DNA of 64,000 nt from Candidatus Marinacidobacterium sp. (GCA_965220965.1 OZ244852.1:645141-709140); one strand, 5' to 3'. Shown: positions 10,475 through 26,103, counted from the first letter of the stretch. Notes: generated by a model not told the origin, from the letters alone. Made by a program: numbers and translations.

Positions 10475-12526
10475 TCAGTTGGTTTCGGACGCCGTGGTGC
10501 GGTAGCGCTCGAACCAGGCGAGGATGTTGGCGATCTTGCCGATGAGCTGGCTCGGCCGCCGGCTCATGTCGTGCGAAGCCCCCGGAAGCCGGACCACGCC
10601 GGTGTCGATCCGCCGCATCTTGAGCGCGTGGAAGAGCTGGTACGACTCGGACAGGGGTGTCCTCAGGTCCGCCGACCCGGTCACGATCAGGGTGGGCGTC
10701 GTGATGTTCTCCGCCAGCGAGAGCGGCGAGAACTTCCAGTAGGGGGCCGGGTCCTCCCATGGGAGGCCCTCGTAGCGGCTGTGGAAGTAGCCGTACCAGT
10801 TGTCGGCGGTGAGCGTCTTGCTGATCCAGTTGACCACCGGCTTCTGGGAGACCGCGGCGCGGAACCGGTCCGTCTTGCCGACGATCCAGGCGGTCAGGAT
10901 GCCGCCCGCGCTCCCGCCGGTCACGAAGAGGTTGTCCGGGTCGATGTAGCCGCGGGCGATCACCGCGTCCACCCCCGAGATGACGTCGTCGTAGTCCTCG
11001 CCCGGGTAGTTGTGGTAGAGCAGATCCCCGAACTCCTCGCCGTAGCTGGTGCTGCCCCGGGGGTTCGGGTAGAGGACCACGTATCCGGCGGCCGCCATCA
11101 GCTGCATCTCCGCCGAGAAGCGGTCCCCGTAGTTCGAGATCGGCCCGCCGTGGATTTCGAGGATGAGCGGGTAGCGACGGGCGGGATCGAAGTCGGGCGG
11201 CTTCACGATCCATCCGTGGATCGGGTGGCCGTCGAACGATGAATCCCACCAGATCTCCTCGACTTCGCCGAGCGTTCGCCCGGAGAGGAGGTCCTCGTTG
11301 AGCGCGGTGATCCTCCGGACCTCTCCCCCGGGTCGCCCGAGCGCGACCTCGCCGGGCTGATCGGGGCGGGTCTGGTTCATCGCGAACGAGCCGTCGTTCG
11401 CGACCGAGAACGATCCGCCCCCGTAGGGCCGGCCGTAGGAGGCGCCTCCGAGGTCGCCCGCGAGGACGCTGGTCTCCCCGTCGAGGGTGACGAACCCGAC
11501 CTTCGAGTTGCCGAGGTCGTCGTACTGGAAGTAGACGCCGCTCCCGTCGCGCGCCCACACCGGGGCCGACACGCTCCGGTCGAGGCCCGCCGTCAGCACC
11601 CGCCGCCCGCTGCCGTCGAGGTTCATCACCTCGAGGCGGCGCACCTGGTAGGTGCGCACGCGGTCCTCGTTGCTGATGAAGGCCACGCTCTGTCCGTCAG
11701 GGGAGACGGCCGGGCTCTGGTCCGGTCCGTTGCGATCGGTCAGCGCGCGGATCTCCCCGCCGGCCGCCGGCGCGATGTAGAGCTCGGAGTTGCGGTAGTC
11801 GTAGACCCAGTCGGGCTTGCGGTTCGAGGAGAACACCAGGTTCTGGCTGTCCGGCGTCCAGGCGGCCGGGCTGGCGTGATGGAAGTCCCCGGAAGTCACC
11901 TGGACCGGGGTGCCCCCTTCGGCCGACACCACGAAGAGGTGCTGGAACCCGAAATCCAGGTAACCGACGCCGTCCTGCCGGTTCCGGAAACGGTCCTCGA
12001 GGATCGGCGGGTCGGCCCACTCGGCGCCCGGCGGCGGCCTCGGCGGCGCCGTCAGGCTCGGCGCCGGATGGGGAACGAGCATGTTGAACGCGATGTGGCG
12101 CCCGTCGGGCGACCAGCGGATCGCGCGCGGGGACTCGAGGAGCTGGGTGAGCGTGGTGGTGTCTCCGGTGTCCATCCAGCGCAGTTGAATCTGGCCGTCA
12201 GCGATGTAGGCCAGCCGGTCGCCGCCCGGGGACCAGCGGGGGGTCGTTCCGGCGCCGAGGCGGCGGTGGTCCCCTCCGTCGGCGTTCACGACCCACAGTT
12301 CGCGCCGCTGCCGGTCGCGCTGGATGTCCATCGACGTGCGGACATAGACCACGCGTTCGCCGTCGGGAGAGATCTGCGGGTCGGCCGCGAATTCGAGCTG
12401 GAACACGTCCATCGGCTCGAAATGGCCCGAGGCCTGGCCGGCCGTCTCGGCCGGATGCAACAGCAGGGTCAGCGCCGCCGCGAGCATCCCGGCGGAGAAG
12501 GGCGACAGGCGAGAGAACGTAGACAT
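10475..12526 (-). CDS. S9 family peptidase (acylaminoacyl-peptidase / prolyl oligopeptidase) with N-terminal beta-propeller, secreted
   Basis: Start ATG at 12526 (MSTFSRLSPFSAGMLAAALTLLLHPAETAGQ). SPDG repeat blades. Catalytic serine GGSAGG plus C-terminal Asp/His region of the alpha/beta hydrolase fold. Confidence 0.85.
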   Translation of the reverse strand: MSTFSRLSPFSAGMLAAALTLLLHPAETAGQASGHFEPMDVFQLEFAADPQISPDGERVVYVRTSMDIQRDRQRRELWVVNADGGDHRRLGAGTTPRWSPGGDRLAYIADGQIQLRWMDTGDTTTLTQLLESPRAIRWSPDGRHIAFNMLVPHPAPSLTAPPRPPPGAEWADPPILEDRFRNRQDGVGYLDFGFQHLFVVSAEGGTPVQVTSGDFHHASPAAWTPDSQNLVFSSNRKPDWVYDYRNSELYIAPAAGGEIRALTDRNGPDQSPAVSPDGQSVAFISNEDRVRTYQVRRLEVMNLDGSGRRVLTAGLDRSVSAPVWARDGSGVYFQYDDLGNSKVGFVTLDGETSVLAGDLGGASYGRPYGGGSFSVANDGSFAMNQTRPDQPGEVALGRPGGEVRRITALNEDLLSGRTLGEVEEIWWDSSFDGHPIHGWIVKPPDFDPARRYPLILEIHGGPISNYGDRFSAEMQLMAAAGYVVLYPNPRGSTSYGEEFGDLLYHNYPGEDYDDVISGVDAVIARGYIDPDNLFVTGGSAGGILTAWIVGKTDRFRAAVSQKPVVNWISKTLTADNWYGYFHSRYEGLPWEDPAPYWKFSPLSLAENITTPTLIVTGSADLRTPLSESYQLFHALKMRRIDTGVVRLPGASHDMSRRPSQLIGKIANILAWFERYRTTASETN

Positions 12527-12663
12527 CGGATGACTCCTGGGCGGGCGGGTCGGGACGGGCGAGTCCCGAAGCGGCGTTTCCGGTTCGCAGATCATGACCG
12601 AACCGGGTCAGGGAGATCCCGGCCGCACCCGGAACCGCCGGCGCTCGGTACACTGGCGCCACC

Positions 12664-14085
12664 GTGATTCGCGTTCCCGTCCTTCGCTGGGGCCAGCCCT
12701 ACCAGAGCCTCGAAACCAACACCGTCAGTCACTTCCTGAGCGGTGAAGCGGTCGCTGAAGTCGACCAGGCGCCCGGGGGGATCGTCCGCCGCGACCTGCG
12801 GAAGGCGGGTCGGGCGCGCCAGATCCTCCGCGAGATCCCGAGCCGGGAGATCCTCGGGATGATGAAGGAGGCGGCCCGCCTCTACCAGGAGGAGGAGCTC
12901 CCTCTGGGCGATGGCCGGCAGTCCCCCTCGGACTTCGTGCGGGCGCAGTCGGCGACGACCGGCCTGCCCGAGTCCATGTGCCGGGCCAACATGGAGAAGA
13001 ACCGGTTCGTCCTCGAGCGGATGGACCAGGTCCTCGACTCGCTGACGCGCGGGCTCGACCTCGACATCCTCGCCAGCGGCCACGGGGTCGAGGACCGGGG
13101 CGTGCCGGTGTCCTACCAGGCGCAGACCCCGGTCCTCGGCTGCGTCCTGCCGTCCAACTCTCCGGGAGTCCACACGCTCTGGCTGCCGGTCATCCCGATG
13201 CGGATCGGGCTGGTGCTGAAGCCCGGCCCGGAGGAGCCCTGGACGCCCTACCGGATGGCGGAGGCGTTCTTCGCCGCCGGCGTTCCCCGCGAGGCCATCG
13301 CGGTCTATCCGGGAGGCGCCGATGTGGGCGCCGCCGTCGTCGAGGCCGCCCCAAAGAGCCTCATCTTCGGAAGCCGCGCCACCGTGGAGCGCTACCGCTC
13401 GAATCCCGGCGTCCGGGTGCATGGCCCCGGCTTCTCCAAGATCCTGCTGGGCGACGATGTTGTGGACGAATGGGAGAAGCACCTCGACCTGCTGGTGGAC
13501 AGCGTCTTCCAGAACAGCGGCCGTAGCTGCATTTCCTGTTCGGGGATCTGGGCTTCACGCCACACCGAGGAGATCGCCGAGGCGCTCGCCGAGCGGCTGG
13601 GGCCGGTGGCCCCGCGGCCTCCCGAGGACCCGGAGAGCGCGCTCGCGGCGTTCACCGTGCCCGGCGTGGCCGACGCCATCAATCAGGACATCGACGACCG
13701 GGTCGCGGCCGGCGGCGCCGAGGAGGTGACGGCGCCGCTCCGGGGCGGCCCGCGGCTCGTCAAGGAGGGGAACGCGGCGTGGCTGCGTCCCACCGTCGTC
13801 CACTGCGACGGCCCGGAGCGGCAGGCGGCGAACGTGGAATACATGTTCCCCTTCGCCTCGGTGGTCCGTTGCCCGCAGGAGAAGATGCTCGACCACATCG
13901 GGGACACCCTGGTGGCCACCGCGATCACCGGGGACAGCGGTTTTCGCGAGGCGCTCCTCGAGTCCCCGTCGGTCGACCGCCTGAATCTCGGACCCATCCC
14001 CACGAACCGCATCAACTGGCTGCAGCCGCACGAGGGAAACATCCTCGATGTCCTCTACCGCGCCCGCGCCTTCCAGAGCGCCTGA
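12664..14085 (+). CDS. Aldehyde dehydrogenase family protein
   Basis: GTG start. ALDH-like core (LKPGPEEP, catalytic-Cys region NSGRSCISCSG), 473 aa. Confidence 0.75.
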   Translation: MIRVPVLRWGQPYQSLETNTVSHFLSGEAVAEVDQAPGGIVRRDLRKAGRARQILREIPSREILGMMKEAARLYQEEELPLGDGRQSPSDFVRAQSATTGLPESMCRANMEKNRFVLERMDQVLDSLTRGLDLDILASGHGVEDRGVPVSYQAQTPVLGCVLPSNSPGVHTLWLPVIPMRIGLVLKPGPEEPWTPYRMAEAFFAAGVPREAIAVYPGGADVGAAVVEAAPKSLIFGSRATVERYRSNPGVRVHGPGFSKILLGDDVVDEWEKHLDLLVDSVFQNSGRSCISCSGIWASRHTEEIAEALAERLGPVAPRPPEDPESALAAFTVPGVADAINQDIDDRVAAGGAEEVTAPLRGGPRLVKEGNAAWLRPTVVHCDGPERQAANVEYMFPFASVVRCPQEKMLDHIGDTLVATAITGDSGFREALLESPSVDRLNLGPIPTNRINWLQPHEGNILDVLYRARAFQSA

Positions 14086-14797
14086 GGGCGCCGCGCTGCG
14101 GGAGGCCGGCGAGACGGCTTCGGCGAGCGAGGGCCTGATCGTTCGCGGGCTCGTCAAGGACTACGCCGGGCCCGGAGGCCTGCTGCGGGTGCTCGACGGC
14201 GTCGACCTCGAGGCCGGTCCCGGGGAGGCGCTCTCGATCATGGGAGCGTCGGGCTGCGGCAAGAGCACGCTCCTCTTCCTGCTGGGGGCGATCGAGTCGC
14301 CCTCCGACGGGGAGGTGCGTCTCGCCGGGGTGGACCCTCACGAACTGGATCCTGACGAGCAGGCCCGGTTCCGGCGCGACGAGGTGGGGTTCGTGTTCCA
14401 GGACCACTGCCTCCTTCCCCAGTGCACCGCGCTCGAGAACGTGCTCACCCCGACTCTTCCCGACCCGCGGCCCGGCGACCGGGACCGCGCGGTGGAGCTC
14501 CTCGACCGGGTGGGGCTGTCGGCGCGCCGCGACCATCTGCCGGCGGAGCTCTCCGGGGGCGAGAAACAGCGGGTCGCGATCGCGCGCGCGCTCGTGCGGC
14601 GACCGGGCCTCCTGCTGTGCGACGAGCCCACCGGGAACCTCGACGGGGAGGCGGCGGCCCGCGTCGCCGAACTGCTGGTGGATCGCGGCGCGGTGGGCGC
14701 GGGATGCATCGTGGTTCTGGTGACCCATGATCCGGGCCTGGGCGCCCGCTTCGACCGGGGTTACCGCATGGAGCGCGGCCGGCTCAAAGCCGCCTGA
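14048..14797 (+). CDS. ABC transporter ATP-binding protein (LolD/MacB-type)
   Basis: Walker A GASGCGKST, signature LSGGEKQRVAIARAL, Walker B LLLCDEPTGNLD. Listed start overlaps the ALDH gene by 38 nt; a downstream start is possible. Confidence 0.85.
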   Translation: MSSTAPAPSRAPEGAALREAGETASASEGLIVRGLVKDYAGPGGLLRVLDGVDLEAGPGEALSIMGASGCGKSTLLFLLGAIESPSDGEVRLAGVDPHELDPDEQARFRRDEVGFVFQDHCLLPQCTALENVLTPTLPDPRPGDRDRAVELLDRVGLSARRDHLPAELSGGEKQRVAIARALVRRPGLLLCDEPTGNLDGEAAARVAELLVDRGAVGAGCIVVLVTHDPGLGARFDRGYRMERGRLKAA

Positions 14798-14809
14798 GGG
14801 ACGGCGCGG

Positions 14810-17800
14810 ATGGCCCGGGGTTCCGCAGACGTCGTCCGGCCGGCCCTGCGGGGTCTGATCCACTACCGGCGCGGGCACCTCCTCGTCGCCGCCGCCACCG
14901 CGGTTGCGGCGGCAGTTCTCGTCGGAGCGCTCGCGGTGGGCGATTCGGTCCGGGGCAGCCTCCGCGCCGTCTTCACCGAGCGGCTGGGAGAGGCCGACTT
15001 CGCGGTCCTCCCGCGCCATCCGTTCTCCGACGATCCGGCGACCGGGCTCGCGGCGCGGTTGGCGTCGCAACTCGAGCGGGAAGCTCCCGGATGGTTCGAG
15101 TCGCCGGCGCCGGCGCTGCGGCTCATGGGCGCGGTGTTTCTCCCGGACGGAGCTCCGGAGGCCGTCACCGTGTTCGGCGTCGACGACCGATATTTCGCGC
15201 TTCACCGGGTTCCGGGGCCGGTCTCGCCGGGCGCCGTCCGGGTGAGCCCCGGGCTGGCGCTTCAGGGCATCGAGCCCGGCGACTCGCTGCTGATCCGGGT
15301 GGACGGCGTCTCCGGGATCGCCTCGGCGTCGTTCTTCGGAGACAAGGGCGCCTCCGCGCTCACGTTCCGCCGCACGGTGGAGGCCTGGGCCGAGCCCCGT
15401 CCCGGCCCCGCCTCGGGCGGGTTCTCGCTGTTCCCGGTCCAGGGACCGGTGCGAGCCGTCTTTCTGCCGCTCGGCGAGCTTCGCGCGCTCCTCGACGAGG
15501 ACTTCGGGGGGCCGCCCCGGGCCAACGCGCTCCTATTCCGGGCCGCCGGCGCGGCTGGCGCCGGGGACGAGGGAGAGGCGGTGCTGGCCGCCGCCCTCGA
15601 TGCGACCGCCTCGCTGGACGACCGCGGGCTCGGACTGCGCCGGGGCGAGTCCGGCGACCTGGTGCTGGAGAGCCGGAGCCTCGCGCTCGCCGACCACGAG
15701 GTGGACGGGGCGGTCCGCGCCGCCGAGGCCCGGGGACTTCGGGCAGCGCCGGTGCTTACCTGGCTCGCGACCTCGATGGCGGCGAACGGACGCGAGACTC
15801 CGTATTCGCTGGTGGCCGGGCTTCCCGAGGGCTGGTTCCCTCCGGACGACGACCCCGGCGATGTTCTGCTCCCCGGGCCCTGGCTCACCGAGGATCTCGA
15901 CCTAACCGGGGGCGACGCGATCGAGGTGTCCTACCTTGTTTGGGACGAGGCGGGACGGTTCGAGGCCGCCGCCGCCTCGCTGCCGGTGGGGCCGGGGGTC
16001 GCCCTCGACGGGGTGTTCCGCGATACCACCCTGGCCCCGGAGTTGCCCGGCGTCACCGACTCGGCGCGGATGGGCGACTGGGACCCGCCGTTTCCGCTGG
16101 ACCTGAGCCGGATCCGGGACCGGGACGAAGAGTACTGGGACGACTTCGGCGCGCTTCCGAAGGCGTTCGTGCCCTACGCCACCGCGCGGCGCCTCTGGGA
16201 GATGCGACAGGGGAGCGCAACATCTGTCAGGTTCCGGAGCGAGGGGAGCGCGTCTCTGGATCCCCTCCCGCTCGAAGAATCGCTCGTGGCGGAGCTTCCC
16301 GCCGCCGACTTCGGGCTCGCTCCGGTCGCGGTGCGGGCGCAGGGGCTCGAGGCCTCCCGGGGCGCGACCGACTTCGGGATCTATTTCCTCTACTTCTCGT
16401 GGTTCCTGCTGGTCTCGGCGTTCGTTCTCATCGCCCTGCTGTTCCGGCTGGGGATCGAGCGGCGGCTGCGGGAGATCGGCCTCCTGCTCGCCTGCGGCTG
16501 GCCGCCGAAGCGGGTCTCGCGGACGCTCCTCCTCGAGTCCCTGATCGTCGCCACTGTCGGCGTCGTGGTGGGTTCGGCGCTCGGCCTTCTCTATGCCCGG
16601 GGCATGGTGGGGCTTCTCTCCGGCGTGTGGGGGGGCGCGGTGACCGGGACGCTCGCCGCCTCCGACGGAGGGGCGGAGGCGCCGCTTCAGCTCTTCGTGA
16701 GCTGGGGTTCGGTCACCATGGGGGCGCTGGGCGCGCTCGAGATGGCCCTGATCGCCGCCTGGTGGACCACCCGGCGGCTCGTAAGACTCCCCCCGCGACC
16801 CCTCCTCGCCGGGAGCCTGCCGACCAGCGACGCGGCCGGCCCGCTCCCGGCGCCCGATCCCGGACGCCGCGCGCGTCGGCTGGCCGTCGGTCTCGCGGTC
16901 GTCGGCGTCGGCCTCGCGGGGGCGGCCGCGGCCGGGATCGTTCCGGAGACGGGCGGTTTCTTCGGAGCGGGGTCGGCGCTGCTCGCGGCCGGGCTCGCCG
17001 CCGGCTGGCGGCGCCTGGTGGCCGCCGGGGCCGGAGGCGCGCTCGCCGGGTTGCGGGAACTCGCTTTCCGGGCGGCCGGTTTCCGCCCGGGCCGAAGTCT
17101 CGCCGCCATGGCGCTGGTGGCCTTCGCGGCCTTCACCCTGGTCGCGGTGGAGTCGTTCCGCAAGCAGTCGGGCGCCGGTGGTCTGCCCGAAGGCGTCGGC
17201 GGGGTCCTTGCGCTCACCGAGACGGTGCTGGGGGCGCCGTGGGACCCGACGACCGCCGAGGGGCAGGAGGCGCTCAACCTGCCGGCCGGCCTCGAAGGGT
17301 TCCGGGTGAGCCCGCTTCGTCTCGCCGGCCACGAGGACGCCAGTTGTCTCAATCTCTACCGCCCGGCGCGGCCGCGGGTGCTGGGCGTCCCCCCGACGCT
17401 GCGCGAGGAGAACCGGTTCCCGTTCGCGGCGCACATGGGCGAGACCGCGGCGGAGACCGCGAATCCCTGGCGCCTCCTCGAGCGCGCGCGGGCGCCCTCG
17501 GACCCCATCCCGGTGATCGGCGACCAGAACTCGATGACGTACGTCCTCAAGTGGCCGGTCGGCGAGGAGCGTTCCTACCCCATCGGGGACGGGGGCGCTC
17601 CGGTCCGGTTGCGGCTGGTGGCGACGCTTTGGGACAGCCTCTTCCAGGGGGAGCTGCTGATGGCGGAGGAGGATCTGCTGGACTCGCTGCCGGTCGAGGA
17701 CGGCTACCGCATGTTCCTGGTGGACCGGCCCGGCGAGGTCCCGGTCGGCGCCGAGGCGCTCGCTGCGGCGGAGTCCGCAGCCACGGCGCTCCTCGCCGAT

Positions 17801-18253
17801 GCGCTCTCGGACTACGGAGCGGCCTCCACCGCCGCCCGCGCCCGGCTCGAGAGCTTCCACCAGGTGGAGAACACTTACCTCTCCACCTTCCAGGCGCTCG
17901 GCGGCCTCGGGCTCCTGCTCGGAACGCTGGGGCTCGGCGCGGTGCTCCTGCGGAACGCCGACGAGCGGAAGAAGGAGTGGGCGCTGCTCGCGGCGGCGGG
18001 CTACCGGCGGCGCGACTTCGCTTCGCTCGGTTTCTGGGAGAACGCGCTCCTCCTCCTCGCCGGCGTCGGGGTCGGCGCCGGCGCGGCCATCGTCTCGGTC
18101 CTCCCGGTGCTCGGCCAGCGGGGCGCCGGCGGGAGTCTCGGGCTCCTCGCCGTTCTCCTCTCCGGGATCGTGGCGTTCGGCCTGCTCACCGGCGCGCTCG
18201 CCGCCCGCCGCGCCGCCACCCGACCCATCCTCCCGGCGCTCCGCGCCGAGTGA
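14810..18253 (+). CDS. FtsX-like ABC transporter permease with duplicated MacB_PCD/FtsX modules (1147 aa)
   Basis: Two FtsX-type 4-TM blocks, each preceded by a large extracytoplasmic domain. Follows the ATPase by 12 nt. The alternative 1139-aa ORF in another frame is R/G-rich junk. Confidence 0.8.
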   Translation: MARGSADVVRPALRGLIHYRRGHLLVAAATAVAAAVLVGALAVGDSVRGSLRAVFTERLGEADFAVLPRHPFSDDPATGLAARLASQLEREAPGWFESPAPALRLMGAVFLPDGAPEAVTVFGVDDRYFALHRVPGPVSPGAVRVSPGLALQGIEPGDSLLIRVDGVSGIASASFFGDKGASALTFRRTVEAWAEPRPGPASGGFSLFPVQGPVRAVFLPLGELRALLDEDFGGPPRANALLFRAAGAAGAGDEGEAVLAAALDATASLDDRGLGLRRGESGDLVLESRSLALADHEVDGAVRAAEARGLRAAPVLTWLATSMAANGRETPYSLVAGLPEGWFPPDDDPGDVLLPGPWLTEDLDLTGGDAIEVSYLVWDEAGRFEAAAASLPVGPGVALDGVFRDTTLAPELPGVTDSARMGDWDPPFPLDLSRIRDRDEEYWDDFGALPKAFVPYATARRLWEMRQGSATSVRFRSEGSASLDPLPLEESLVAELPAADFGLAPVAVRAQGLEASRGATDFGIYFLYFSWFLLVSAFVLIALLFRLGIERRLREIGLLLACGWPPKRVSRTLLLESLIVATVGVVVGSALGLLYARGMVGLLSGVWGGAVTGTLAASDGGAEAPLQLFVSWGSVTMGALGALEMALIAAWWTTRRLVRLPPRPLLAGSLPTSDAAGPLPAPDPGRRARRLAVGLAVVGVGLAGAAAAGIVPETGGFFGAGSALLAAGLAAGWRRLVAAGAGGALAGLRELAFRAAGFRPGRSLAAMALVAFAAFTLVAVESFRKQSGAGGLPEGVGGVLALTETVLGAPWDPTTAEGQEALNLPAGLEGFRVSPLRLAGHEDASCLNLYRPARPRVLGVPPTLREENRFPFAAHMGETAAETANPWRLLERARAPSDPIPVIGDQNSMTYVLKWPVGEERSYPIGDGGAPVRLRLVATLWDSLFQGELLMAEEDLLDSLPVEDGYRMFLVDRPGEVPVGAEALAAAESAATALLADALSDYGAASTAARARLESFHQVENTYLSTFQALGGLGLLLGTLGLGAVLLRNADERKKEWALLAAAGYRRRDFASLGFWENALLLLAGVGVGAGAAIVSVLPVLGQRGAGGSLGLLAVLLSGIVAFGLLTGALAARRAATRPILPALRAE

Positions 18254-18292
18254 GGGCGGGACCCGGGCGTACGATTCAGCAGCGGAGCCTTC

Positions 18293-19558
18293 ATGGCATA
18301 TCCCGCGCCGTCCCGCAGCCGGTCCGAAGTGGACCGCGCGGGCGAGGTTCTGGCCGGGCCCAGGGACGAGGGGTGCGCTGCGGCGCGTCAGGTGGCCAGC
18401 GACTGGCGGGCCGCGCACGCCTACCCGCTGCTCGCGCTCCGGAAGCTTCTGGCGCGGAGGGCGCGCGAGGCCGACCCCGACGGCGACAGCCTGGTGGCGC
18501 TGCGACGTAACGGCCTGTTGGCGAAGTCCCGTGCAGCGCCGAGAGCGGTGAGGCGCCCGTCCGACAAGGCGCGTGAGCGAGGAATATCGGGAATATTCCG
18601 AGCGAAACGGAACGATGAGCGCCCCGAAGGGGCGCGGTTCGGGCGGGATGCATCGCCGCTCGAACGCCGCGTGACTTTGTCAATAGGCCGTTGAGCGACT
18701 GGTCTCGGTGGAGGCCAAGCTCCGGCGGTTCTCCGGGATGCGGCTCTCCCGGATGCAGGACCTCGGCGGCTGCCGCGCCATCCTCTCCGATGTGGGGAGC
18801 GTGGACCGGCTGGTCCGGATCTACGCGGACCGGCGGCAGAGCCACGATCTGGTCAGGAGCGACGACTACATCGCGGAACCCAAGGCCGATGGATACCGGG
18901 GCGTCCACCTGGTCTACCGCTACCGCTCGCGGAGCGACGCCGGCGCCGTCTGGAACGGCCTGCGGATCGAGGTGCAGATGCGCTCGAGGCTCCAGCACGC
19001 CTGGGCCGCCGCGGTCGAGACCGTGGATGCGATCCGGGGTACGCGGCTCAAACGGGGGGGCCGGGCAACGGCCGCTGGGACCGGTTCTTCGCGCTCATGG
19101 GCAGCGTCCTGGCGATCCGGGAGAGGAGGCCAGCGGTTCCGGGAACGCCCACCGCCCTCGCGGAACTCCGGGACGAGGCGACGACGCTCGAACGGGAGCT
19201 GGGGGTCATGTCCACGCTGCTGACGCTGGGCGTGGCGGTTCACCGCGTGGATCGGGTTGCTGGACTCATCAGGGACTTTCGCCGGGTGGCCGCCTGGTAC
19301 CTGCTGACAGTCGATTCCCGGACCGCCACGACCTCGGTCCGCGGCTATGGCGCGACGGCGTTCGAGGACGCGCGCGCCGAGTACCTTCGCCGCGAGGAAC
19401 AGCATCGGGACAGCCCCGGGATTCAGGTCTGCCTGGTCTCCACGACCTCCGCCGAGGCGCTGCGAAGGGCCTATCCCAACTACCATCTCAATTCGCAGGA
19501 CTTCCTGGGCGCGGTCGCCGAGCTGTACGAGCGGGGATCCCGGAGGGTTGGCCCGTGA
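18293..19558 (+). pseudogene. RelA/SpoT-domain protein (small alarmone synthetase-like), disrupted by a 193-bp insertion and a +1 frameshift in a G7 tract
   Basis: The N-terminal piece (18293-18506) carries the conserved SEVDRAGEVL and WRAAHAYPL motifs. Removing 18507-18699 restores the reading ...SLVALRLVSVEAKLRRFSGMRLSRMQDLGGCRAIL. The synthetase core GYRGVHLVYRY...RIEVQMRS..QHAWA lies in the 18708-19223 frame. The true continuation KRGGPGNGRWDRFFALMGSVLAIRE is in the 19097-19558 frame and requires one extra G in the GGGGGGG run at 19054-19060. Confidence 0.7.
18507..18694. mobile_element. MITE-like 188-bp non-autonomous insertion with 14-bp imperfect terminal inverted repeats and a 5-bp target-site duplication (GCGAC)
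   Basis: Direct repeat GCGAC at 18502-18506 and 18695-18699. Ends GTAACGGCCTGTTG and its inverse TCAACGGCCTATTG match at 11 of 14 positions. Internal palindrome GGAATATTCC. Local GC is clearly below the 70% background. Excising the insert plus one repeat copy (193 bp, 1 mod 3) restores the host ORF in frame. Confidence 0.55.
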
Positions 19559-19616
19559 ACATCGCCCGCGGTCCCGTCGTTTCGTCGGGCGTACCAGGCA
19601 TGCCGGAGGCGCGACC

Positions 19617-19898
19617 GTGAAGAGCAGGACTACGTACGAGCTGGACGCCAGGTCTGTCCGCGTGCTGAAGCGGCTCGCGCGCCGCTGGGGCGTTTCGGAG
19701 TCGGAGGCGCTTGGCCGGGCGATCCGCAGCGAGGGCTGCCGGCAGATGCGGAACGAGGACGCCATTGCCGCACTTCAGGAGCTGCAGGCCTCGCTCCGGA
19801 GGAAGGGGGTCGACGTCGCCCGGTGGGAGCGCGAGGCGCGCGAGGAGCGGCGCGCCTCTTGGGGCCCCGGCCGAGCGTCGCCGGGGCCTCCTACGTAA
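19617..19898 (+). CDS. Ribbon-helix-helix (CopG/antitoxin-like) small DNA-binding protein
   Basis: GTG start with GGAGG 8 nt upstream. N-terminal motif TYELDARSVRVLKRLARRWGVSESEALGRAI (beta strand plus two helices of an RHH fold). 93 aa. Begins 58 nt after the RelA/SpoT pseudogene. Confidence 0.5.
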   Translation: MKSRTTYELDARSVRVLKRLARRWGVSESEALGRAIRSEGCRQMRNEDAIAALQELQASLRRKGVDVARWEREAREERRASWGPGRASPGPPT

Positions 19899-19907
19899 AC
19901 GGCTCCG

Positions 19908-21107
19908 CTACTCGGGAAAGACGCTCTTCGGGATGTAGCCGGTGACGACCTGGGTGAGGTCCACGACCTCGCTCACCCGGAAGTCCACCGCGATGCTCGT
20001 GAGCGAGAGCGCCTCGGCGGGGGAGTGACCCTTCTCCTCGACGAGGAACTCCACGACTCCCCGGGTGGCCTTGACCGCCGCCCGGTCCAGATCGAGGTCG
20101 ATCCCCATGATCATGATGTGGTCGGCGTCCTCCGCGCGCGGCGCGGTGAGGGTGCGGCCCTTGTGGACCGCGAACCGGAACACCATGGACAGCGACTGCT
20201 CGATGGCGGTGCCGCTCACCTCGCCGTCACCCTGCGCGCCGTGGGGGTCCCCGGCGTAGAACAGAGCTCCCGGGTGGAAGACCGGCAGGTAGAGCGTCGT
20301 TCCCGCTTTCAGGTCCTTCACGTCGAGGTTGCCGCCGAAGAGGCCGGGAGGGCGGGAGCCCTGGACCCCGGGGACGGTCACTCCCGGTTCCCCGAGCACC
20401 GGATCGGGCGCGACCGCCAGGATGCCGGGGAAGGGCGCCAGCGGGACCTCGACGCCGTGCGGCAGGAAGGCGACCTCGCGCCCGCCGGAGAAGCCGGTCC
20501 GGATCAGATGCCGGGTTCCCGGCGGGATGTCGAACGCGGGATCTCCCGGCCGAAAGCCCGGATAGCTCTCCGAAAACACCCCGCCCCGCGCCGAGGTGTT
20601 GTTGATGCCCCAGGGAACGCGGGTCGTCACCTCGAGGATCCGGATCTCGAGAACATCTCCGGGCTCGGCGCCCTCGATATGGATCGGGCCGGTGATCACG
20701 TGGCCGCTCCGCCCCTCGCGCGGGCGATCCCCCCGGGACGCCCAGAAGTCGAGCACGTCCTGGGGGATCTCCTCGCGGGGAACGCCGAGGCCGGTGAGCC
20801 AGGCGACCGGTTCTTCGTCCTGAACTGCGCCGGCGTGGGTCAGGGTGTCCACCCGGACGGTCGCGCCGGGCTCGACCCGGAGCACCGGCTCGCGATCCGT
20901 CGGGAACCAGCCCCAGACGACGTTGTCCGGAGTCGAGGGGACGAAGTGATCCGCTTCGATGGGCGACTCGGCCGGAGGCGCCGCACTCCCGGCCTCCGCT
21001 TCGGTTCCCGGATCCGGCGCCGCACAACCGGCGAGGGCGACCAGGCATCCGGCAAGCCAGGCGGCCGCCGGGTGAAGCGATGTCCGGAATGTCAGGCGGC
21101 GTCCCAC
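19908..21107 (-). CDS. Acetamidase/formamidase (FmdA_AmdA) family protein, lipoprotein
   Basis: Lipobox LAGCAAP. FmdA/AmdA family similarity across about 400 aa (GNLDVKDLKAGTTLYLPV region). Confidence 0.8.
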   Translation of the reverse strand: MGRRLTFRTSLHPAAAWLAGCLVALAGCAAPDPGTEAEAGSAAPPAESPIEADHFVPSTPDNVVWGWFPTDREPVLRVEPGATVRVDTLTHAGAVQDEEPVAWLTGLGVPREEIPQDVLDFWASRGDRPREGRSGHVITGPIHIEGAEPGDVLEIRILEVTTRVPWGINNTSARGGVFSESYPGFRPGDPAFDIPPGTRHLIRTGFSGGREVAFLPHGVEVPLAPFPGILAVAPDPVLGEPGVTVPGVQGSRPPGLFGGNLDVKDLKAGTTLYLPVFHPGALFYAGDPHGAQGDGEVSGTAIEQSLSMVFRFAVHKGRTLTAPRAEDADHIMIMGIDLDLDRAAVKATRGVVEFLVEEKGHSPAEALSLTSIAVDFRVSEVVDLTQVVTGYIPKSVFPE

Positions 21108-21135
21108 GGCGATTCCTCCCTGGAGAGCGGGCCCC

Positions 21136-22818
21136 TCAGCGGGTCAGCCGCTCGCCGGTCATCGAGAGCGGACCCCGGTTCGGACCGGTGAAGTCGGGAC
21201 GGACTTCGGAGTCCGCCAGATCCCAGGCCAACTGGTAGACCAGGCGCACGATCCGCTCCAGCTTTTCGTACTCGATCTTTTCCGGGGTGTCGTAGATCGT
21301 GTGGTAATCGGGGTGGAGCCCGGTGTGGAAGAACAGCGCCGGAACGCCGCTCTGGAGGAAGGGCCACTGGTCGCTTCGGCGCAGCAGGTTCGAGGAGTTG
21401 TTGTCGTAGCGCATCCGCAGGTCGAGTTCGGACTCGCGGTTCGCCGCGCGGACCATGTCGGTCAGGGTCCGGCTGTAGCTGTACCCAAGGATGTTGACGG
21501 CGTTCCGGTTCGACTCGGCCGTCTGGGGCTCCAGACCCCCGAACCGGCGGCCGCCTCCCCGGCGCACCTCCTCGCTCCTCCCGATCATGTCCATGTTGAG
21601 CACGGCCACCGTGTCGGCGAGCGGATGGAGCGGGTCCTCGGTATACGCCCAGGCGCCGATCAGACCCCGCTCCTCGGAGTTCCAGGCCGCCAGCAGGATG
21701 CTCCGCCGGGGCCGTTGTCCGGCGGCGGCGGCGCGTCCGAGCGCCTCGGCGATCCCGATCAGCGCGACCGTGCCCGAGGCGTCATCGTCGGCGCCCGGAA
21801 ACACCAGGTCCCCGTCGGCGCCGTTGTGGTCGTAATGGGCGGTGAGCAGGATCCACTCGTCCGGGGTTTCGGCGCCGCGCAGGAGGCCGACCACGTTCCG
21901 GTCGGGGACGCTCGTCCGGACCACGGATGTCGCGAGCCGCACCCGCCGCCCCAGGGGGACCGCTTCGTCCATGCCGCCGTCGGCGAGCCGCCCCAGTTCC
22001 GTCAGGCTGCGACCTCCCGGGCGGAGGAGCCCGGAAGCGGTCCGGGGCGAGATCACCGCCGCCGGGATCGTCACCCTCTCCACCCACGAGGCGAGTTGAT
22101 ACCGCGGGATCCTCCGGGGCGCGTCGGGCCAGGCGCCGCGCGCCGCCGCGGAGAAGTCGAACGGGCCGGGGTGCTGGTGGACGTCCCGCACGAACAGGAT
22201 GCCCGAGGCGCCGGCGCGGGCCGCCGCCAGCGCCTTCCGCAGCGCCCGGGAGGGCTCCGAGCTGACGACGCCGTCGAACCGGCTCCCCGGGTCGTTTTCT
22301 CCCGGTTCGTGGTCCAGAACGAGGGCGATCTTCCCGGCGACGTCGACGCCTTCCCAGTCGTTCCAGCCGTAGTCCGGGGCGTCCATCCCGAACCCGACGA
22401 ACGCGACCTCGCCTTCCGCGGTGGCCGAGGGCGAAAACGCCTGCGGATAGAAGTCCTCGCCCACCTGCGCCGTCCGGGTGACCTCGCCGAGGAGATCCAG
22501 CCGGTTGGGCTCCGAGAGCGCGGCGCGCACGAGCCGATATCCGTGGAAATAGCTCCCGCCGGGCGGCGCGAGGCCGGCGCGGGCGAACCGGGAGGCGATG
22601 AACTCCGCCGCGAGCCGGTTTTCGGGCGTGTCGGTGAGGCGCCCCCGCATGTTGTCCGAGGCCAGGAAGAACAGGTCGGCCCGCAGATCGGCCGCGGTGA
22701 TGGACTCCGCCGCTGGGGCCGGCGACTGGGTTCCGGACTGGGCGAAGGCCGCTCCGGCGCCGAGCACGCCGAGAAGAACCGCTCCCCCCAGCCAGCGGTG
22801 TGACGACCGTCTGTCCAT
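21136..22818 (-). CDS. M28 family metallopeptidase with PA domain (aminopeptidase), secreted
   Basis: Signal peptide. Zn ligands in HYDH.. / DDDASG / EERGLIGAW / HTGLHPDYHT motifs. Confidence 0.85.
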   Translation of the reverse strand: MDRRSSHRWLGGAVLLGVLGAGAAFAQSGTQSPAPAAESITAADLRADLFFLASDNMRGRLTDTPENRLAAEFIASRFARAGLAPPGGSYFHGYRLVRAALSEPNRLDLLGEVTRTAQVGEDFYPQAFSPSATAEGEVAFVGFGMDAPDYGWNDWEGVDVAGKIALVLDHEPGENDPGSRFDGVVSSEPSRALRKALAAARAGASGILFVRDVHQHPGPFDFSAAARGAWPDAPRRIPRYQLASWVERVTIPAAVISPRTASGLLRPGGRSLTELGRLADGGMDEAVPLGRRVRLATSVVRTSVPDRNVVGLLRGAETPDEWILLTAHYDHNGADGDLVFPGADDDASGTVALIGIAEALGRAAAAGQRPRRSILLAAWNSEERGLIGAWAYTEDPLHPLADTVAVLNMDMIGRSEEVRRGGGRRFGGLEPQTAESNRNAVNILGYSYSRTLTDMVRAANRESELDLRMRYDNNSSNLLRRSDQWPFLQSGVPALFFHTGLHPDYHTIYDTPEKIEYEKLERIVRLVYQLAWDLADSEVRPDFTGPNRGPLSMTGERLTR

Positions 22819-22926
22819 GAGCTTCCGATCTCCTTCGGCGCGAATCAGTTATACCAGCCGCGCGGCTCGCCGGTCCCACCGCCGCGGGGGGTTCGGGAGG
22901 GTCCCCGGCGGATACGATAGGTCGCC

Positions 22927-25107
22927 ATGCCGCTCCTCGCGTCCCTCCTTCTGTTTGTCCTTTCCGTCCTCCTCGCCGTCCCGGCGGTCGCGCAGGACGC
23001 CGATCCGCCGCGCGGCTTCCTGCCCGGCCAGTGGGAGGAACAGCGCGCGATCGAGGAGCGGTTCCGGGCGGTTCCGGACCCGGCCCGGCTGCGCGAGTAC
23101 ATGGAGTACATGGCGGGCGAGCCCCACATCGCCGGCTTCGGGGGCGGCAGCCTCCGGGTGGCGGAATACGCCCTCGAGAAGTTCCGGTCCTTCGGGCTGG
23201 AGGCCGAGATCGAGGAGACCGAGGCGCTCATGCCGCTGCCGACCGAACGCTTCGTCGAGGTCGTCGGCCCCGAGCCCTACACACTCCGGCTCGAGGAGCT
23301 GGCCGTCGCGGAAGACCCGGACACTTCCGACGACGGGCTGCTGCCCACCTTCAACCCCTACGCCGCCGACGGTGACGTCCGGGGCGAAGTCGTCTTTGTG
23401 AACTACGGCATCCCCGAGGATTACGAGATGCTCGCCGAACTCGGCATTTCCGTCGAGGGGAAGATCGTCCTGGCCCGTTACGGCCGGAGCTGGCGCGGGA
23501 TCAAGGCCAAGCTGGCGCAGGAAAACGGCGCCGTTGGCGCGCTCATGTACTCGGATCCGGAGGAGGACGGCTACTACCAGGGCCTGACCTATCCCGAAGG
23601 GCCCTACCGTCCGGAGTGGGGCGTCCAGCGCGGCTCCATCCTGGACATGCCGGTTCACCCCGGAGATCCGCTGACGCCCGGCTGGGGGGCCACCGAGGAT
23701 CGCGAGAAGCTGACCCGGGAGACGGCGCGGACCCTCGTCCGGATTCCGGTGCTCCCGATCTCCTGGGGAGACGCGCTTCCGATCCTGAAGCAGCTCCGGG
23801 GGACGCCGGCGCCGAACGACGACTGGAAGGGGGCGCTCCCGATCACCTACCACATCGGTCCGGGACCGGCCGAAGTCAGGATGCGCACCGCCTACGACTG
23901 GCGGGTGCGGCCGATCTACAACGTCGTGGCGCGGATCGAGGGCTCCCACGAGCCCGACCAGTGGATCGTCCACGGGAACCACCACGACGCGTGGTGCAAC
24001 GGGGCGACGGACCCGATCAGCGGGGCGGTCCAGCTCATGGAGACCGCGCGCGGGTTCGGCGAACTCCTTCGCGCCGGGATCCGGCCGCGGCGGACGGTGA
24101 TCTTCGCGCTCTGGGACGCCGAGGAATGGGGTCTGCTGGGCTCCACCGAATGGGCCGAGACCCACCGCGAGGATCTCGGTGAGAACGGAGTCGTCTACAT
24201 CAACACCGACAGCACCGGGAAGGGCTGGCTCAGCATGGCGGGCAGCCACACCCTGCAGCGGTTCCTGAACGAGGTCGCCCGGGACATCGAGGATCCCGAG
24301 CGCGGCGTCAGCGTGTTCGAGGCCGCGCGGGCGCGGCGGCTGGAGACCGCGGCGAACCCCGATCTCCGGCGCGAGATCGAGCAGAGCGACGACCTCCGGC
24401 TGGCGGCCCTCGGCTCGGGCTCCGACTACACCGTCTTCATCGACCACCTCACCATGGCCTCGCTGAACCTCGGGTTCGGCGGCGACAGTCCGGGCGGGGT
24501 CTATCACTCGAACTACGACACCTTCCACTGGTACAACGAGTTCTCGGACAGCGACTTCGTGTTCGGTCGCGCCCTGTCGCAGCTCACCGGCACCGCGATC
24601 CTGCGCCTCGCGAACGCGGCGATCCTCCCCTTCGGCTTCACCGATCTGGCGGACGCGATGCGGGACTATGTCGGAGAGATCCGCGAGACGCACGCGGCGA
24701 TGGACACCTCGGAGGAGATCGACTTCGCCGCCCTGGAGGGCGCCCTCGATGCGCTCGACGAAGCCGGCGAGGGGTATGAGGGCGCCCTCGCGCGCCTCGG
24801 GGACGCTTCGGTGGAGGCGACGCTCGCCAACCCGGAGGCTTCGCGGCTGAACCGGCTCCTCTACACGACCGAGCGTCGGCTCGGCTCCGAGGAGGGGCTG
24901 CCCCAGCGGGAGTGGTTCCGCCACCAGGTCTACGCCCCCGGCTTCTACACCGGCTACGGCGTGAAGACGATCCCGGGCGTCCGCGAGGGGATCGAGGAAG
25001 AGGAGTGGGAGGCGGCGCGCTTCTATGTCCGCGTCGTGAGCGACGCCCTCGCCGCGCTCACCGGTCAGGTGCGCGAGGCCGAGCGGATCCTGGGCGAACT
25101 CCGCTAG
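22927..25107 (+). CDS. M28 peptidase of the transferrin-receptor / glutamate carboxypeptidase II-like (PA-M28-TfR dimerisation) type, secreted
   Basis: Signal peptide. M28 motifs (HHDAWCNGATDPISG, DAEEWGLLGSTEW, YHSNYDTFHW). C-terminal TfR-like dimerisation domain. 726 aa. Confidence 0.85.
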   Translation: MPLLASLLLFVLSVLLAVPAVAQDADPPRGFLPGQWEEQRAIEERFRAVPDPARLREYMEYMAGEPHIAGFGGGSLRVAEYALEKFRSFGLEAEIEETEALMPLPTERFVEVVGPEPYTLRLEELAVAEDPDTSDDGLLPTFNPYAADGDVRGEVVFVNYGIPEDYEMLAELGISVEGKIVLARYGRSWRGIKAKLAQENGAVGALMYSDPEEDGYYQGLTYPEGPYRPEWGVQRGSILDMPVHPGDPLTPGWGATEDREKLTRETARTLVRIPVLPISWGDALPILKQLRGTPAPNDDWKGALPITYHIGPGPAEVRMRTAYDWRVRPIYNVVARIEGSHEPDQWIVHGNHHDAWCNGATDPISGAVQLMETARGFGELLRAGIRPRRTVIFALWDAEEWGLLGSTEWAETHREDLGENGVVYINTDSTGKGWLSMAGSHTLQRFLNEVARDIEDPERGVSVFEAARARRLETAANPDLRREIEQSDDLRLAALGSGSDYTVFIDHLTMASLNLGFGGDSPGGVYHSNYDTFHWYNEFSDSDFVFGRALSQLTGTAILRLANAAILPFGFTDLADAMRDYVGEIRETHAAMDTSEEIDFAALEGALDALDEAGEGYEGALARLGDASVEATLANPEASRLNRLLYTTERRLGSEEGLPQREWFRHQVYAPGFYTGYGVKTIPGVREGIEEEEWEAARFYVRVVSDALAALTGQVREAERILGELR

Positions 25108-25161
25108 GGAACCGCCCCCGCCCGGACGCCAACTCCGCCGCGGCGCGCCTTCGCCGGGACC

Positions 25162-26052
25162 ATGAAGGGTCTCGCATTCGCGGCGATCTACCTCATCTGG
25201 GGGTCCACCTATCTGGCGATCGGGGTGGCGGTGCGCGAGGTCCCGCCCTGGATCGTCGCCGGATCCCGGTTCCTCATCGCGGGCGCCCTGGTGTACGCCT
25301 TCGCCCGCCGGACCGCTCCGGCGCTCACCCGGCGCGAGTGGCTCGAGGCCGGGTTCGCCGGGCTGCTCTTCTTCGGCGTTTCGCACGGTCTCGGCCACTG
25401 GGCGCAGGTGCGCGTCCCCTCCGGGATTACGGCCGTCCTGATCGCGACGGTGGGGCTGTGGATGCCGGGGCTCGAGGCGCTCTTCGTGACCCGACGCCCT
25501 CCGGCGGCGATCACCGCGGGATGCGCGCTCGTCGGCTTCGCCGGGGTCGTGGTGCTGCTCGCGCCCTGGTGGCCGGGGGCGGCGCTCGACCGCTCCGGCG
25601 TTGCGGCGATCCTGCTGGCGCCAGTCGCCTGGTCCGTCGCGAGCCTCTGGTCGCGCCGCCCCACGATGCCTACCCGGCTGCTCTCCTCGGTCGGAGCCCA
25701 GATGCTGGTGGGCGGGGCCGCGCTGCTCGTCCTCGCCACCCTGACGGGGAGCTGGGCCGATCTGGATCCGGGGGCGATTCGTCTCCGGGCGGTGGTCGCC
25801 TGGCTCCACCTGCTCATCTTCGGCTCGATCGTGGCGTTCCTCGCCTACCAGTACCTGCTGCGGCGGGTGCGGCCCGCGCTCGCCGCGACCTACGCCTTCG
25901 TCAACCCGCTGATCGCCGTTCTGCTCGGCGCGCTCGTTCTCGGCGAGGAGCTCTCGCCCCGCGTCGCCATCGCCACGGTTCTCATCGTCACGCCGGTCGC
26001 CGTCCTCCAGATCCGCGAAATCCGGCGTCCCCGCGGTCGCGCCGAGCTCTGA
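25162..26052 (+). CDS. EamA/DMT family transporter
   Basis: Ten predicted TM helices, duplicated EamA halves, 296 aa. Confidence 0.8.
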   Translation: MKGLAFAAIYLIWGSTYLAIGVAVREVPPWIVAGSRFLIAGALVYAFARRTAPALTRREWLEAGFAGLLFFGVSHGLGHWAQVRVPSGITAVLIATVGLWMPGLEALFVTRRPPAAITAGCALVGFAGVVVLLAPWWPGAALDRSGVAAILLAPVAWSVASLWSRRPTMPTRLLSSVGAQMLVGGAALLVLATLTGSWADLDPGAIRLRAVVAWLHLLIFGSIVAFLAYQYLLRRVRPALAATYAFVNPLIAVLLGALVLGEELSPRVAIATVLIVTPVAVLQIREIRRPRGRAEL

Positions 26053-26103
26053 CCCGCGCGCCGCGCTGATCCGCGCGCCGAAAGCTAGGATCCGCGCCGG
26101 TTC

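Follow-up and report, generated by a model that had tools for sequence, protein, structure and literature searches.

We propose, with a probability of roughly 0.8, that positions 18508-18693 of the 64,000-nucleotide stretch of DNA analysed here (hereafter the window), which comes from an Acidobacteriota metagenome-assembled genome, are one copy of a multi-copy family of non-coding, hairpin-forming and non-autonomous mobile repeats of about 184 bp that occurs in high-GC uncultured bacteria, and that this copy has split a gene of the PDC-S33 type. The family itself is previously undescribed, while its kind, that of the bacterial MITE- and REPIN-like repeats, is already known. The assignment of the window to the Acidobacteriota rests on the named relatives of its PpiD protein. 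The features on which the argument turns are the following:

18293-18508, + strand: 5' portion of the split gene (codons 1 to about 72), with ...L V A L R (R) as its last residues; the open reading frame 18293-18694 is protein P0099
18502-18506, + strand: left GCGAC, read from homologue DNA and the protein alignment as the codon (G-CGA-C) for the first Arg in R-x-K-R
18508-18693, + strand: mobile hairpin element with ends TA...TG and a paired core at 18510-18691, delimited by the family profile, the fold, covariation and the excision test
18581-18599, + strand: internal hairpin 1, stem GGAATAT/ATATTCC with loop CGGGA (profile columns 75-81 with 87-93)
18619-18635, + strand: internal hairpin 2, GCGCCCC-GAA-GGGGCGC, whose stem covaries across copies (helix 5)
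18692-18694, + strand: TGA stop in the upstream frame, from the right end of the element, which cuts the product to 133 aa
18694-19558, + strand: 3' part of the gene, from ...RLVSVEAKLRR... to the stop, intact except for a 1-nt homopolymer difference at about 19050-19053
18695-18699, + strand: right GCGAC, likewise read as the second Arg codon (G-CGA-C) of R-x-K-R
19050-19053, + strand: AAA homopolymer, AAAA in a second assembly (L001); apparent frameshift of the 3' part

The interrupted RelA/SpoT-like gene and the limits of the insert

The insert splits a RelA/SpoT-domain gene, on the homologues of which the Pfam domain PF04607 (RelA_SpoT) is recorded. Once 184 bp are removed, the repaired protein matches the PADLOC profile PDC-S33 over its full length (E 5e-101, 336.6 bits), with residues 1-351 aligned to profile positions 1-342 of 349. 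The insertion site falls within the codons for the catalytic R-x-K-R-L motif, and its net effect is a gain of 184 bp, a frame shift and the provision of a TGA stop, which together leave the gene as a stub of 133 aa followed by a remainder that lacks its 5' end; the gene has presumably been inactivated. As the remaining reading frame is intact, we infer that the insertion is recent. The insert recurs unchanged in L001, an independent second assembly of this organism, where the 3' part is called as a 283-aa RelA_SpoT protein. The two assemblies differ by a single base in the run of A at about 19050, and because the extra A in L001 restores the full 3' reading frame, the additional frameshift of the window at 19050-19053 is probably a homopolymer assembly error.

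In the syntenic orthologue, in locus L009, the gene is uninterrupted. The gene order common to L009 and positions 14048-28614 of the window comprises an ABC ATPase, an FtsX-type permease (1147 aa), the RelA/SpoT-domain gene, a PA-M28-TFR peptidase, EamA and a TonB receptor; in this comparison the window additionally encodes, on the other strand at 19908-22818, an FmdA/AmdA amidase and an M28 peptidase. The closest full-length homologue, P0001 (L067, 3001-6772), adjoins genes for ScoMcrA-like, ThsA (Macro) and ThsB (TIR) proteins, a neighbourhood that looks like a defence island. Judged from sequence, the data are consistent with a defence role for the RelA/SpoT-like PDC-S33 family.

The preliminary description of this DNA had interpreted the insert as a 188-bp MITE bounded by GTAAC...GTTGA and flanked by a 5-bp GCGAC target-site duplication, with excision of 193 bp restoring the gene seamlessly. 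What it had recorded in the sequence is there: GCGAC stands at both 18502-06 and 18695-99, the inverted ends GTAACGGCCTGTTG (18507-20) and CAATAGGCCGTTGA (18681-94) match at 11 of 14 positions, the internal palindrome GGAATATTCC lies at 18590-99, the G+C content of the element is below that of the window (64.9% against 71.9%), and the insert is indeed a foreign, non-coding and hairpin-forming sequence within a coding region. The 14-nt inverted repeat taken alone is not beyond chance (3 matches with <=3 mismatches in the window against 2.2 expected).

Comparison with homologues places the limits of the insertion elsewhere. The protein alignment runs gap-free through the site in all 22 homologues (22/22), which read Q-R-x-K-R-L-x-S-x-E-x-K. 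Excision of 193 bp is in frame, as claimed, but the resulting L-R-L-V-S-V-E-A-K is not the native junction: it is three residues short and has lost the near-invariant R and K of the RxK found in each of the 22. If 184 bp are removed instead, the protein aligns without gaps, and the three registers in which this can be done score 331.1, 333.7 and 336.6 bits in PADLOC as against 321.3 for the 193-bp excision, that is, 10-15 bits more. At the DNA level, the homologue in L067 reads CAG CGA CTA AAG CGC CTG (GCGAC-TAAA-GCGCC) and that in L009 reads CAG CGG CTG AAG CGT CTC (GCGGC-TGAA-GCGTC). Near-repeats of the form GCGNC thus lie 4 nt apart in these homologues and 188 nt apart in the window, whence the net insertion is 184 bp and not 188 bp. 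Since the homologues carry the same near-repeat as the two Arg codons of R-x-K-R, the GCGAC pair is, on this comparison, to be read as native host-gene sequence and not as a target-site duplication. If the register is free to slide, flanking repeats of 5 nt are by our estimate close to chance (a few per cent), and none of the other full-length copies of the family described below has a 5-bp repeat outside its termini (0/25). The check that the preliminary description had set, namely whether its repeats recur at other loci, therefore gave a divided answer: the inverted repeat is reproduced but the direct repeat is not. We accordingly attach next to no credence to the 188-bp model, even though its direct repeat is present and its excision in frame. 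Derivation from Tn3-type inverted-repeat miniature elements was likewise rejected, there being no 5-bp duplication at every copy (0/25 other full copies).

The register of the insertion is uncertain by about 3 nt. The L067 homologue has CTAA exactly at the insertion point, and CTT-AAG or CGT-AAG, if native in the lineage of the window, would supply a TA. Several junction models were tested on the window copy, seven nested copies and one pair of filled and empty sites. The models were duplication of TA (2 bp) or of YTAR (4 bp), insertion at G|TT, and insertion between T and A without duplication; none fits every case, each needing 1-3 unexplained substitutions beside the junction.

A dispersed family with a conserved, strand-asymmetric fold

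The six-frame translation of the insert, with its pieces joined, matches 22 spurious open reading frames in the protein collection, and the contigs that encode them hold many copies of the element at 78-88% identity. A family profile built from ten copies recovers the window copy with nhmmer (18508-18692, E 3e-52), together with some 45 copies, whole or fragmentary, spread over nine other loci (L055-L060, L063, L065 and L066), all from high-GC metagenomic sequences (68-73% G+C). One spurious open reading frame that spans an array of copies matches 250 representatives of 50%-identity clusters in public data at E<=1e-3, which implies that the family is widespread in public metagenomes. The element thus has the multiple dispersed copies of a MITE, by virtue of the nine other loci and the 250 representatives; the window itself has exactly one copy by profile search of its 64 kb, in which neither further copies nor isolated termini were found.

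Outside the window the copies are intergenic, for example near tuf, rplI-dnaB, recA, metK and ftsK. Some are solo, some stand in tandem and share a TTAA or CTAG junction, and some are nested. Their orientation is mixed with respect both to neighbouring copies and to flanking genes; judged by eye from the gene tables, about 7 are sense and 4 antisense to the flanking genes and the others lie in divergent gaps, with no evident rule. Gene callers run genes through some copies, as in a 530-aa solute-binding protein (L060 10001-10234; also L061 and L062) and a 395-aa lipoyl synthase (L063 10945-11188), and copies also yield stand-alone 'proteins' of 180-380 aa that have no Pfam domain.

The family consensus reads (Y)TA(R)CAGCCTGTGG ... 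CCACAGGCTG(Y)TA(R). Canonical copies are bounded by Y-TA-R (TTAA or CTAG), with TA at the left end in 29 of 36 cases and at the right end in 23 of 37, and in about half of the full copies the two flanks carry the same YTAR. The right ends of the nested copies and of the window copy have TG, TC or TT instead; the window copy, like some of the nested and recent-looking copies, is of a subtype whose left and right ends read GTAA and TTGA respectively. Neither a conserved target tetranucleotide 5' of the element nor a GTAG tag was found.

The earlier suggestion of an uncharacterised repeat family is borne out by the many other copies, and no match was found in Rfam, plasmids, phages or the full-text literature. 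Rfam gave nothing at gathering score in the window and only chance-level matches (E<=10) across 18000-19200; BLAST of the window copy and the family consensus against plasmids and phages returned short chance matches only; the conserved core pattern retrieved nothing from viral contigs; and the full-text literature held no match to the conserved core strings of the element, nor to PDC-S33. The terminal 20-mer of the window copy, AACGGCCTRTTGRCRAAGTC, sought in exact and degenerate form among genomes, metagenomes and viral contigs, occurs at single sites only. About 35 matches of the AACGGCCTRTTGRCRAAGTC scan belong to an unrelated conserved 3' motif of Terriglobales. This motif of about 45 nt follows a gene on its 3' side, both in genomes of Terriglobales/Acidobacteria and in metagenomes from soil (L002-L054, e.g. 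L002 5390-5500 and L004 5150-5260), has the form TTTCCCTCCTCCCCGGAGGACTTCGCCAACAGGCCGTTCC-loop-GGAACGGCCTTTTTTT with a terminator-like hairpin at its end, and has no Rfam match. It shares an exact 21-mer with the left arm of the window copy, which is probably a matter of chance.

The element of the window, at 182-186 bp, is of MITE size and is non-coding: there are stops in three of the six frames, and the open frames have matches to spurious open reading frames only. Its arms at 18509-31 and 18670-92, 83% complementary, form terminal inverted repeats. The whole insert folds as a long hairpin of -111 kcal/mol (z = -7.9; 0/200 shuffles as good), as against only -89 kcal/mol for the opposite strand. 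The palindrome GGAATATTCC is a by-product of internal hairpin 1, in which the window copy shows a compensatory change from C-G to U-A relative to the family consensus GGAATAC...GTATTCC. In internal hairpin 2, columns 118 and 125 pair as GC in 10 copies, as UA in 4 and as CG in 1.

Across the family the consensus fold has five helices and 69 pairs, 29 of them in helix 1, and 97.3% of cells are paired. Changes on both sides are seen at 25 pairs, as against 10.3±2.1 in column shuffles (0/500 reach 25) and 2-7 when partners are slid; shared descent of the copies inflates such counts, though many G·U positions are still polymorphic between copies. The covariation extends to both internal hairpins. 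Sequence hardly varies at the centre of the element; in the mid-arms it does, with compensation. The fold is also strongly asymmetric between strands: every copy (21 of 21) folds more stably on the + strand, 91 cells are G·U and 8 are A·C, and the energy of the consensus fold is -122.5 kcal/mol on the + strand and -76.1 kcal/mol on the - strand.

Evidence of mobility and the manner of movement

The insertion into the RelA/SpoT-domain gene counts in itself as evidence of mobility. A second case comes from two strains in one sample (L059 and L065), which are 99.2-99.5% identical: between ftsK and an AMIN-amidase gene, one has a filled site of 189 nt where the other has an empty site of 6 nt, a net difference of 183 bp. 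The empty site has no TA, there is no duplication, and 2-3 nt beside the junction differ. Third, copies are nested within one another at profile columns of about 68 and about 130, reaching a threefold 'onion' in L059; these columns are unpaired junctions of the fold, and no target duplication was seen at the nested copies.

Further variation is seen at individual sites. The intergenic site between metK and an NTP-transferase gene holds one + copy in L058 (15056-15238) and about five nested or tandem - copies in L055 (10006-11029), both inserts starting at the same flanking base; from this it follows that arrays grow in place and that a single site can accommodate the asymmetric centre either way round. 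Where L059 has full copies (12290-12560), L065 has an arms-only derivative of about 62 bp (12130-12190), which implies that the centre of the element can be lost. L065 also lacks one left arm of the nested array of L059, which looks like unequal recombination. A micro-insert of 19-21 nt, CCCCCACCGGGAGAACTGG(G), is found inside copies at no fewer than, i.e. at least, 5 different positions and in both orientations (23 hits: L055 10500-10954, L057 11379-11511, L059 10373-15511 and L060 10042-21587; none in the window), and two such inserts can bracket deletions of the centre of the element (L057 3706, L060 5333).

As to mechanism, we lean towards recognition of the folded + strand as a single-stranded nucleic acid, by analogy with REPIN/RAYT or IS200-IS605 elements, because the compensated fold is strand-specific, insertions fall in the unpaired junctions of older copies and there is no consistent duplication. 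The element is presumably moved in trans by an enzyme encoded outside the window. Single-stranded DNA transposons that are coupled to replication do not usually show mixed copy orientation, so the mixed orientation of the present copies counts against single-stranded recognition. The preliminary description had correctly judged the element non-autonomous: none of the 40 window reading frames (0/40) matches a Pfam transposase or integrase family. Nor is any member of the Y1_Tnp family present in the gene tables of the copy-bearing loci or among the window reading frames, and the only insertion sequence in those loci is an IS21 in L055, which has no flanking copies of the element. Derivation from an IS200/IS605-type PATE was rejected: such elements lack terminal inverted repeats and have a fixed target of 4-5 nt directly 5' of the left end, whereas here long inverted repeats are present and the left flanks have no shared motif.

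The chief alternative, which seems to us clearly less probable but deserves to be kept in view, is a classical MITE served by a DDE transposase acting on double-stranded DNA, either IS630/Tc1-like (with TA duplicated in CTAG or TTAA) or IS5-like (with YTAR duplicated), the hairpin then being a mere consequence of long terminal inverted repeats. The element termini, (R)CAG...CTG(Y), which we take to resemble Tc1/IS630 ends, speak for such an enzyme. So do the TA at most termini, the agreement of YTAR on the two sides in about half of the full copies, the single TTAA or CTAG shared by tandem copies and the CTAA at the insertion point in the L067 homologue. Bacterial MITEs, moreover, typically have TA ends and long stem-loops (PMC2229807). 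However, the empty site of the L059/L065 pair offers no TA and shows no duplication, the nested copies and the window copy depart from TA on the right, and neither the compensation within the internal hairpins nor a ratio of G·U to A·C of 11:1 on one strand would be expected if double-stranded DNA were recognized; further, no matching insertion sequence was found in the window, the copy-bearing loci, plasmids, phages or viral contigs.

A bolder version of recognition through the fold, which we regard as less likely than not, is that the family represents a new structure-dependent and strand-specific type of element. Here, a 184-nt unit with a conserved two-hairpin core would move via a folded single-stranded DNA or RNA intermediate by means of a kind of enzyme not yet linked to such repeats; it would prefer the unpaired junctions of its own copies, and the CCCCCACCGGGAGAACTGG micro-insert would constitute a second layer of mobility.

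It is very improbable that the repeat is an integron-type attC site, or a cassette lacking an open reading frame, recombined by an integron integrase at G|TT. Such a site would fit a hairpin specific to single strands, the AAC...GTT ends of half of the copies and the conserved bulges, and tandem units do abut at GTT|AAC; insertion at G|TT accounts exactly for one nested copy (L059 15200-15402). An attC site measures 57-141 nt, though, and the element 184 nt. The comparison draws on the strand selectivity of attC sites (PMC5027507), but it breaks down at the AAC/GTT triplets, which vary among copies: columns 4 and 186 form A-U in 8 copies and G-C in 7. Furthermore, the copies are scattered among housekeeping genes and not gathered in a single cassette array, the usual setting of attC sites next to intI, and no integrase figures in the gene table of any copy-bearing locus.

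Even more doubtful is a structured RNA element, intron-like or bypassed, that is removed or skipped at the RNA level with the host gene still working: the remaining reading frame is intact and the fold on the sense strand of the gene very stable, but Rfam gave no match, group I and II introns included, the other copies are intergenic and in either orientation relative to flanking genes, splice-site-like conserved boundaries are absent, and known translational bypass gaps are far shorter than 184 nt. A group I intron was rejected on a further count, as its splice sites call for an exon that ends in U and an intron that ends in G, two conditions that the ambiguous GCGAC cannot jointly satisfy.

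Relationship to known repeats and implications

The element takes its place, as a new family, among the bacterial repeats of MITE and REPIN type (PMC2229807, PMC3116915). With the bacterial MITEs (Correia/NEMIS, ERIC/RU-1, RUP and YPAL/RU-2) it shares a size below 200 bp, a non-coding nature, terminal inverted repeats with TA at most termini, a stem-loop of the whole element, many mostly intergenic copies that occasionally lie within genes, and the lack of a transposase of its own (PMC2229807). It differs from them in being G+C-rich (65%), in its strong strand asymmetry and in showing no consistent target duplication (PMC2229807). A further difference is its nearly invariant centre, made up of two small hairpins and unpaired stretches, as opposed to mid-arms that vary with compensation. 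Unlike the case of the bacterial MITEs, we know of no insertion sequence related to the element.

With the REPINs and their RAYT (Y1/HUH) enzymes there are parallels in the extragenic hairpin repeats, the frequent compensatory changes, the tandem clusters and the insertion into or beside existing copies, and a single-stranded DNA mechanism without reported target duplication is presumed for REPINs (PMC3116915, PMC8266576, PMC3733652). However, REPINs consist of two inverted REP units, each a palindrome of 20-40 nt, with a GTAG or CGTC tag, whereas the arms of the present element pair with each other in place of forming local REP palindromes, and its ends are N-TA-R (TTAA, CTAG, GTAA) without either tag. 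Conservation also runs the other way: REPINs are most conserved at their ends and least in the spacer, while the element is most conserved at its centre, and no RAYT gene was seen in the copy-bearing loci or the window. The Rickettsia palindromic elements (RPE) offer another parallel as palindromic repeats inside protein-coding genes, but they are in frame and translated, in contrast to the frame shift and stop codon brought by the window copy. Finally, attC sites resemble the element in that the folded single strand is the functional form, with strand choice through unpaired features and AAC...GTT-like ends (PMC5027507); they part from it in that the element is too long, its triplets are not conserved, its copies are dispersed and there is no integrase nearby.

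These results have consequences beyond the single gene. Where a direct repeat flanks an insert in a coding sequence, homologues should be compared before a target duplication is called. The family also creates hundreds of spurious 'proteins' in public databases, which a family profile would remove. In terms of biology, the interruption of a candidate anti-phage gene of the RelA/SpoT-like PDC-S33 type furnishes an example of such a gene presumably knocked out by a hairpin repeat. More generally, an undescribed family of small mobile repeats is added from uncultured Acidobacteriota-type genomes, in which it is the fold that is conserved and not the sequence of the arms; this points to a folded single strand as the form that is mobilised, and the family may serve as a comparison case for how REPIN- and MITE-like hairpins move.
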